Of a stretch of DNA of 6,951 bases, positions 3,970-4,362 are shown piece by piece. Numbering within the stretch: the first letter of the stretch is position 1; each line of letters begins with the position of its first letter. Both the position numbers and the translations under genes were made by a program. Source of the stretch: Escherichia coli (GTDB taxonomy: Bacteria; Pseudomonadota; Gammaproteobacteria; Enterobacterales; Enterobacteriaceae); assembly GCF_003334335.1 (NCBI RefSeq), contig NZ_QOWQ01000074.1. One strand, written 5' to 3'. The notes beneath the pieces were generated by a model that saw only the letters and a program-made list of their open reading frames with translations, was not told where the DNA came from and did no database searches.

Positions 3970-4251
3970 ATGTTACAGATAGTCGGCGCGCTGATCCTGC
4001 TGATCGCAGGATTTGCCATTCTTCGCCTTTTGTTCAGAGCATTAATCAGCACGGCTTCTGCGCTGGCAGGGCTCATATTGCTGTGTCTGTTCGGCCCGGC
4101 CTTACTGGCTGGCTATATCACCGAACGCATAACCCGGTTGTTCCATATTCGCTGGCTGGCAGGCGTATTTCTGACGATTGCCGGAATGATCATCAGCTTC
4201 ATGTGGGGACTTGATGGTAAACATATCGCGCTGGTGCAAAATGGCATCTGA
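3970..4251 (+). CDS. Small inner-membrane protein (93 aa, three predicted transmembrane helices); probably the N-terminal remnant of a longer membrane-protein gene truncated by the IS21-family insertion
   Basis: ATG at 3970 is preceded by GGAG (3961-3964, 5-nt spacer). The product MLQIVGALILLIAGFAILRLLF...ASALAGLILLCLFGPALLAGYI...WLAGVFLTIAGMIISFMWGL has three hydrophobic stretches. The TGA stop (4249-4251) lies exactly at the first nucleotides of the IS21 left end. In E. coli CP4-44-type islands the gene after flu is the membrane protein yeeR; that is a contextual guess and I cannot verify the sequence match. Confidence 0.5.
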   Translation: MLQIVGALILLIAGFAILRLLFRALISTASALAGLILLCLFGPALLAGYITERITRLFHIRWLAGVFLTIAGMIISFMWGLDGKHIALVQNGI

Positions 4252-4253
4252 AT

Positions 4254-4362
4254 CGATCGCAGTTTGGCATTCGAATCGATCATGATTTGGCATCCATCTC
4301 CGATCACAGTTTGGCATCACAATCGATCACGATTTGGCATGCTTCCGATCATTGATTGGCAT
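4254..4362 (+). repeat. Five tandem 17-bp direct repeats (consensus CGATCAnnnTTTGGCAT) at 22-24 bp periodicity; IS21-family left-end multiple terminal repeats, likely transposase binding sites
   Basis: Copies at 4254-4270, 4277-4293, 4301-4317, 4324-4340 and 4346-4362. Each contains a GATC. Multiple subterminal repeats are a known hallmark of IS21-family ends. Confidence 0.8.

Follow-up and report, generated by a model that had tools for sequence, protein, structure and literature searches.

The phased repeats at the ends of the insertion sequence (IS) in the 6,951-nt stretch of Escherichia coli DNA analyzed here (the window) are very probably multipartite terminal inverted repeats, built from predicted two-box binding sites for the transposase IstA in which GATC forms the core of one box, the one that the first helix-turn-helix (HTH-1) would read. 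They are a textbook IS21-family end of a common, already catalogued E. coli IS. The eight terminal GATC sites would follow from GATC being the core of the HTH-1 box, and selection for Dam sites is not needed to account for them. The excess of GATC at the ends stems from the repetition of one binding motif.

The element, its termini and its genes

An ISSso4-like IS21-family element spans positions 4235-6872 of the window (plus strand). It is complete, with a length of 2638 bp as compared to 2639 bp in other copies, and it shares 99.4-100% identity with hundreds of annotated copies on plasmids and chromosomes of E. coli, Shigella, Salmonella and Klebsiella. Matches with at least 99% identity occur in more than 500 plasmid records and in several hundred E. 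coli records. We set the ends of the IS by comparing five other copies, each with different flanks. These five copies carry target duplications of 4-6 bp and place the ends at 4235 and 6872. The termini read 5′-TGCAAAATGGCAT...GGAATACGCA-3′ (TGC...GCA), and both they and the duplications have the TG...CA form and the short length (4-8 bp) by which the family is recognized. The initial annotation had begun the left end at 4249, which is 14 bp inside the true terminus.

The IS has inserted simply into yeeR, a gene that adjoins agn43 in K-12. The target duplication of the window copy is imperfect, reading GCTGG to the left of the IS and GC-GG to its right (4227-4234 and 6873-6880), where 5 bp are expected. 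A segment of 2752 bp around the repeats is 100% identical to ten E. coli chromosomes, and the window is E. coli chromosomal DNA. As annotated by PGAP in the identical region, two features lie upstream of yeeR: the end of an autotransporter gene, itself truncated (~1-1171), and an IS66-family element with tnpA (~1350-1679), a tnpB pseudogene (~1666-2045) and a frameshifted tnpC (~2088-3570). The island at ~1-3570 of the window is a graveyard of IS insertions.

The istA gene, which encodes the DDE transposase (4437-6001, plus strand), is a pseudogene that PGAP describes as 'istA: IS21 family transposase' and 'frameshifted'. When compared to five intact copies, a single A is missing after 4823 (2638 versus 2639 bp), and the reading frame is shifted. 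Apart from this 1-nt deletion and seven substitutions within istA, the window copy is identical to the intact copy L002. Directly downstream, the intact istB gene encodes the AAA+ helper ATPase (6018-6773, plus strand; PGAP 'IS21-like element ISSso4 family helper ATPase IstB'). The intact IstA homologue of L002 scores 283.6 bits on the NCBIfam model NF033546 (transpos_IS21, cut-off 160), and IstB (window 6018-6770) scores 257 bits on NF038214 (IS21_help_AAA, cut-off 200), which bears out the original assignment of this end to the IS21 family. As the ends are intact and istA is frameshifted, the window copy could move only if IstA were supplied in trans.

An in-frame ATG at 4437-4439, directly after a Shine-Dalgarno sequence and 30 nt ahead of the annotated istA start, is likely the true start codon, with IstA beginning MSRKRKSRST-METCF.... 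The leader at 4398-4434 (plus strand) is predicted to fold into a stem-loop (-16.3 kcal/mol, z = -3.0) in which TCTCCA pairs with the TGGAGA Shine-Dalgarno. An equivalent stem is found upstream of istA in relatives with 70-88% identity, with some sequence changes, and the structure looks like a fold-back that limits the translation of read-through transcripts.

Repeat units at both ends

Five 17-bp repeats (CGATCAnnnTTTGGCAT, following the pattern CGATC(A/G)nnnnTTGGCAT) lie within 4254-4362 and start at 4254, 4277, 4301, 4324 and 4346. Their spacings are 23, 24, 23 and 22 bp and each contains GATC, so that the initial description of five such repeats with a 22-24 bp period was recovered in full. 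At the right end, GATC is present at 6804-6807, 6826-6829 and 6850-6853. All three of the right-end GATC copies first reported are therefore there, with the coordinates of two of them corrected by one position (those now at 6804-6807 and 6826-6829), but only two right-end repeats match the full 17-mer in the phasing used at the time.

We replaced that earlier unit, CGATCA-N-TGGCAT, with a unit that reads TGGCAT-N5-7-CGATCA from the terminus inward, yielding six units at the left end and three complete units at the right end. The two boxes within a unit are 11-12 bp apart and the units are ~23 bp apart (22-24 bp), as in the repeat architecture of IS21-family ends. The first left unit was phased as in IS5376, where the proximal box precedes a distal box that adjoins the next repeat (PMC10122671).

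On the left (plus strand), unit L1 (4242-4259) joins TGGCAT at 4242-4247, the outermost such box and 8 nt from the terminus, to CGATCG at 4254-4259 (GATC at 4255). Units L2 (4265-4282), L3 (4288-4306), L4 (4312-4329) and L5 (4335-4351) each join TGGCAT to CGATCA, with GATC at 4278, 4302, 4325 and 4347, respectively. The innermost unit, L6 (4357-4373), has TGGCAT and a decayed CAGTCA (4368-4373) without GATC. On the right (minus strand), R1 (6849-6865) has a degenerate TCCGCT at 6860-6865 and CGATCA at 6849-6854 (GATC at 6850), R2 (6825-6843) has TGGCAT at 6838-6843 and CGATCA at 6825-6830 (GATC at 6826), and R3 (6803-6819) has TCGCAT at 6814-6819 and CGATCA at 6803-6808 (GATC at 6804). At the position of the decayed L6 box, an intact CGATCA is found in the Edwardsiella (88%), ENA (81%), Enterobacter (79%) and Logan (70%) elements. 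Its retention in Edwardsiella and in the 70-81% relatives indicates that the ancestral left end had six GATC boxes. The terminal repeats of the window copy are identical to those of five intact copies, and all eight GATC sites are the same in these six independent copies.

An inner motif, CCGGGAATTAACT, directly follows the last left repeat (4376-4388, plus strand) and has a right-end copy at 6789-6801 (minus strand; reverse complement CCGGGAACTTAAC). This inverted motif (CCGGGAAnTTAAC, CCGGGAA(n)TTAAC) comes after the innermost unit at both ends and is conserved to ~70% IstA identity, and the corresponding inverted repeat pairs 4376-4394 with 6783-6801. The inner motif might serve as a site for an accessory protein or belong to a promoter.

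Across the entire window there are 26 GATC sites, compared to 26.7 expected from its composition. The terminal ~209 bp contain eight, compared to ~0.8 expected, with the left five in 96 bp and the right three in 50 bp. The GATC excess initially noted at the ends is thus real as a count, but its members are copies of a single motif and not independent events. Because the eight sites copy one binding motif, their clustering counts as one event rather than eight.

The structure of a family member indicates how such units may be read. In the cryo-EM structure of IS5376 IstA bound to DNA, the direct repeats are 23 bp apart and each contains two conserved regions about one helical turn apart; a single IstA subunit contacts both regions in the major groove, one through HTH-1 and the other through HTH-2, and HTH-1 reads the conserved region that adjoins the following repeat (PMC10122671). 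By analogy, an IstA subunit would use its two N-terminal HTH domains to read the two boxes of a window unit in the major groove, one box per domain. The more N-terminal of them (HTH-1) would read CGATCA, the terminus-distal box, with TGGCAT as the terminus-proximal box. An IstA tetramer would engage the two outermost units of each end, as in IS5376, and the inner units may act as accessory sites. In the IS5376 study, integration required two complete repeats per end (PMC10122671). The initial reading of the repeats as presumed IstA sites, each with GATC in its conserved core, agrees with this predicted arrangement. Iterons, coding repeats or chance as explanations of the repeats are ruled out by their presence at both termini, in inverted orientation and in all relatives.

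Distal-box cores and their co-variation with HTH-1

We compared the ends with those of relatives from three samples: 80 loci on genome contigs with 43-55% IstA identity, taken among the matches listed; eight closer relatives with 55-89% IstA identity, obtained by exact-protein look-ups; and 17 plasmid-borne relatives that include named ISs. The non-redundant comparison set comprised 89 relatives, and its sampling was seeded from an E. coli query. A motif search detected arrays phased at 22-24 bp in most of the 80 genome-contig loci among the matches listed, and the short or truncated contigs L007, L009, L063, L028 and L087 were instead read by eye. The close and plasmid-borne relatives, when read directly, carry the same phased arrays. 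Across the 89 non-redundant relatives, the normal array has four to six repeats on the left and two to four on the right. Consequently, the five left copies had been wrongly considered more than usual: four to six are typical of this subgroup, and one element has nine.

That element, L092, is located on a Citrobacter freundii complex plasmid contig, where nine phased CCGATC boxes, about twice the usual number, are located ~260 nt upstream of istA; its left end alternates the proximal boxes ATTCCGATTT and ATTCCGGTC. In a separate group of elements (L097-L099, L101 and L107-L109, the last three being IS408, ISRme9 and ISBmu3), the left direct array is followed by a second array with the same units inverted, making the left end a large imperfect palindrome. 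The window element does not have this inner inverted array.

The proximal box of relatives is usually similar to ATTCCGG or ATTTCGG, and that of the window element is TTTGGCAT. The distal box differs from one lineage to another. CCGATCA is found in the enteric clade, many Vibrio, ISEc12 and several MAGs, and also in Colwellia, Ferrimonas, Alteromonas, Algibacillus and Arsukibacterium. GTGAACA is found in Marinobacter, ISAs29 of Aeromonas, Citrobacter and Pantoea; CCGAACA in Marinomonas and one Vibrio; CGACCA or CCGGAC in Photobacterium; CCGGCCA or CCGGACA in Pseudomonas, Thiocapsa and one Aeromonas; and CTGCCAC in Haliea and Nitrincola. The core of the distal box is therefore GATC, GAAC, GACC, GGCC, GGAC or TGCC, depending on the lineage. 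Such variation is expected if the distal box is a protein site that co-evolves with its protein. The conserved core is also wider than GATC, extending to C-GATC-A/G, as expected for a protein site.

Two pairs of closely related elements differ in this core. The Vibrio elements L008 and L049 have CCGATCA, while their sisters L010 (Marinomonas) and L017 (Vibrio) have CCGAACA; IstA of L008 is ~93% identical to that of L010 and of L017. The switch from T to A is present in every left and right repeat when the GATC and GAAC sisters are compared, with the left ends lying ~90-270 nt upstream of istA. At the right end, the repeats of L049 match those of L017 in full but for this T to A change in the box. 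On the protein side, all 11 type-consistent IstA differences (those shared within and differing between the two types) are located at positions 13-44, which form the N-terminal helix-turn-helix, HTH-1. They include K26N, L27V, G28S, P29L, S30A, I32V, L36V and T37A. IstA and all of its sites have changed in concert, as in a natural specificity switch, and this assigns the GATC box to HTH-1.

The assignment of boxes to HTH domains is inferred from both the IS5376-like architecture and this co-variation. The IS5376 contact residues R31 and K32 could not be mapped onto the window IstA, as the alignment to PDB 8q4d/8b4h begins at residue 75. Taken together, the best-supported reading is that GATC serves as a transposase recognition core and is probably one of several alternatives that can replace one another at the center of the HTH-1 box.

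Methylation-based explanations and known systems

In E. coli, the GATC sites of the IS ends will be Dam-methylated. It is physically plausible that Dam affects IstA binding, because the box with the methylated sites is probably one that the protein contacts through the major groove. The GATC cores could accordingly have been kept so that Dam gates IstA, with methylated ends being poor or altered substrates and hemimethylated ends being active, which would couple transposition to the replication fork as in IS10, IS50 and IS903. Beyond this plausibility, Dam control finds no support; the sequence comparisons neither require nor exclude it, and we consider it unlikely that the cores were kept for this purpose. 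Evolved, replication-coupled Dam control of the window's IS ends is similarly improbable.

Several observations favor a role for Dam. GATC is located in the box that co-varies with HTH-1, and the HTH domains of the family make their contacts in the major groove, where N6-methyl-adenine protrudes (PMC10122671). All eight GATC sites are identical in six independent copies. Conservation of GATC in close relatives, which had been set as a test of the Dam proposal, was also observed: GATC is kept in nine of the ten relatives with 55-89% IstA identity, and the named hosts are all Enterobacterales. The nine are the Salmonella, Edwardsiella, Enterobacter, Citrobacter freundii complex and Sodalis (ISSoEn3) elements and four others, and the tenth (L090, 63% IstA identity) has ACGAACA. 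More broadly, GATC-phased elements with a named host are mostly from Enterobacterales, Vibrionales or Alteromonadales. Using the established knowledge of the Dam/SeqA/MutH 'Dam cohort' to assign orders, as cited in PMC8826520, we counted GATC-phased arrays in ~19 of 27 elements from Dam-cohort orders, compared to 5 of 47 elements from other named hosts and 8 of 15 from hosts without an assigned order (non-redundant counts, with the 19/27 and 5/47 corrected by direct reading of truncated contigs). The much higher frequency of GATC-phased arrays in Dam-cohort orders speaks against a neutral view; if the view is purely neutral, the host association must come from shared ancestry and from E. coli-seeded sampling.

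The association is nevertheless blunted because the sample was seeded from E. coli and because IstA clades track host clades. The GATC-phased elements represent only about six to eight lineages on an unbootstrapped neighbor-joining tree, and the host association is not statistically secure. Moreover, many elements without GATC are present in Dam-positive hosts, including ISAs29, two from Citrobacter and those of Pantoea, Aeromonas, Photobacterium and Vibrio S9_S30. Conversely, equally strict GATC-phased arrays are found in hosts without GATC methylation, in elements of the IS408, ISRme9, ISBmu3 and ISFK1 types. In IS408, on plasmid pTGL1 of Burkholderia multivorans ATCC 17616, the left end carries four copies of CGTGATCAC and the right end two, together with inner inverted copies, and ISRme9 (Cupriavidus) and ISBmu3 (B. 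glumae) have an IS408-like GATC pattern. In Bradyrhizobium elements of the ISFK1 type, the left end contains four or five copies of GATCGTGAGCA, and the right end of ISFK1 itself contains three. The SMRT methylome of ATCC 17616 contains CACAG, GTWWAC and the type I motif CCA-N6-RTTC, and no GATC methylation (bioRxiv 10.1101/2020.03.09.983379). Of the three points that blunt the Dam association, these arrays in hosts that do not methylate GATC appear to be the most telling. The restriction of GATC-type elements to Dam-cohort hosts, which was apparent in the genome-contig sample, was overturned by IS408, ISRme9, ISBmu3, ISFK1 and the ATCC 17616 methylome.

Many Pseudomonas-type elements, from Pseudomonas and Thiocapsa (L022, L026, L034, L038-L040 and L079), also share a single GATC within the spacer of the third left repeat, indicating that isolated GATCs are inherited in arrays outside Dam-cohort hosts. 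In alphaproteobacterial relatives, we considered a parallel with CcrM through phased GANTC sites and rejected it, as GATTC occurs only sporadically, where an ATTCC box follows G, and forms no consistent pattern.

Features of the window element itself also argue against Dam gating. The core is conserved beyond GATC (C-GATC-A/G), in the manner of a protein site, and GATC has been lost from the sixth left box of an otherwise successful E. coli element. No GATC overlaps a promoter-like site, unlike in IS10 and IS50: a consensus scan of 4200-4520 detected no sigma-70-like site, and the sole nearby GATC outside of the repeats, at 4484, is inside the istA coding sequence. Inspection by eye of the junction formed by abutted ends likewise revealed no convincing -35/-10 pair for a junction promoter. 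A full-text search found no paper in the literature covered that links Dam to the IS21 family, which we also count against this explanation.

A narrower proposal is that the GATC-type IS21 elements of Dam-positive Gammaproteobacteria have an HTH-1 adapted to methylation of its core. Assembly on their ends would then be replication-coupled and sensitive to Dam, hemimethylation or SeqA, and the change from GATC to GAAC together with a remodelled HTH-1 would be an escape from such control. We regard this proposal as rather doubtful; if it were true, it would provide the first methylation-gated transposon that depends on an AAA+ helper.

The phased GATC arrays could also be SeqA tracts, in which case hemimethylated ends would be sequestered after replication like oriC and the access of IstA would be delayed or blocked. 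In favor of this is the clustering of the sites, with 96 bp containing five GATC at the left end and 50 bp containing three at the right. Binding of SeqA to pairs of hemimethylated GATC sites is cooperative, with a preference for sites on the same helical face, and its linker accommodates GATC spacings beyond one turn (PMC2691817). However, start-to-start distances of 22-24 bp correspond to ~2.2 turns, and each step is roughly 70 degrees off the same face. The family-wide 23-bp spacing of IstA repeats, which is present in hosts without SeqA as well, fully accounts for the spacing of the GATC sites. Sequestration by SeqA is consequently less likely than Dam control of IstA binding, and we give it very little credence.

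GATC as the core of the HTH-1 box thus remains the preferred explanation of the arrays. Whether any IS21-family element responds to Dam appears never to have been asked before, and the near-isogenic GATC and GAAC sister elements provide natural, built-in controls for both the Dam and the specificity questions. If a Dam response is found, it would extend replication-coupled control from transposons of the IS10/IS50 type to Mu- and Tn7-like transposases partnered with AAA+ proteins. If there is none, GATC within a site contacted in the major groove need not confer sensitivity to Dam.

When compared to the IS21 family (IS21, IS5376, IS408, ISEc12 and ISAs29), the window IS differs in nothing fundamental. 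They share the istA-istB operon, TG...CA termini, direct repeats ~23 bp apart, two boxes one turn apart and a left end with more repeats than the right. The features of its own are the frameshifted istA and the decayed sixth left box. Its CGATCA distal box is common to the enteric clade, to many Vibrio and Alteromonadales relatives, to ISEc12 and to IS408, whereas other family members have a GAACA, GGCCA, GGACA or TGCCA distal box instead.

With IS10/Tn10, IS50/Tn5 and IS903, the window IS shares a Dam-positive host and GATC within end DNA that is bound by the transposase, as is predicted here. Those elements contain one or two GATC sites, one of which overlaps the -10 region of the transposase promoter, and their dependence on dam was shown genetically. 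The window IS, in contrast, has eight GATC sites, one per predicted unit, and none in a recognizable promoter, and homologous GATC arrays are found in hosts without Dam.

Closer in organization are Mu (MuA sites L1-L3 and R1-R3) and Tn7 (TnsB), which, like the window IS, have multiple, asymmetrically numbered transposase sites at each end and an AAA+ partner: MuB in Mu, TnsC in Tn7 and IstB here. In ends of the Mu, Tn7 and IS21 type, the catalytic core engages only the outer sites and the inner sites are accessory (PMC10122671). Mu and Tn7 differ from the window IS in their transposase families, in their site sequences and in the absence of a regular 23 bp phasing.
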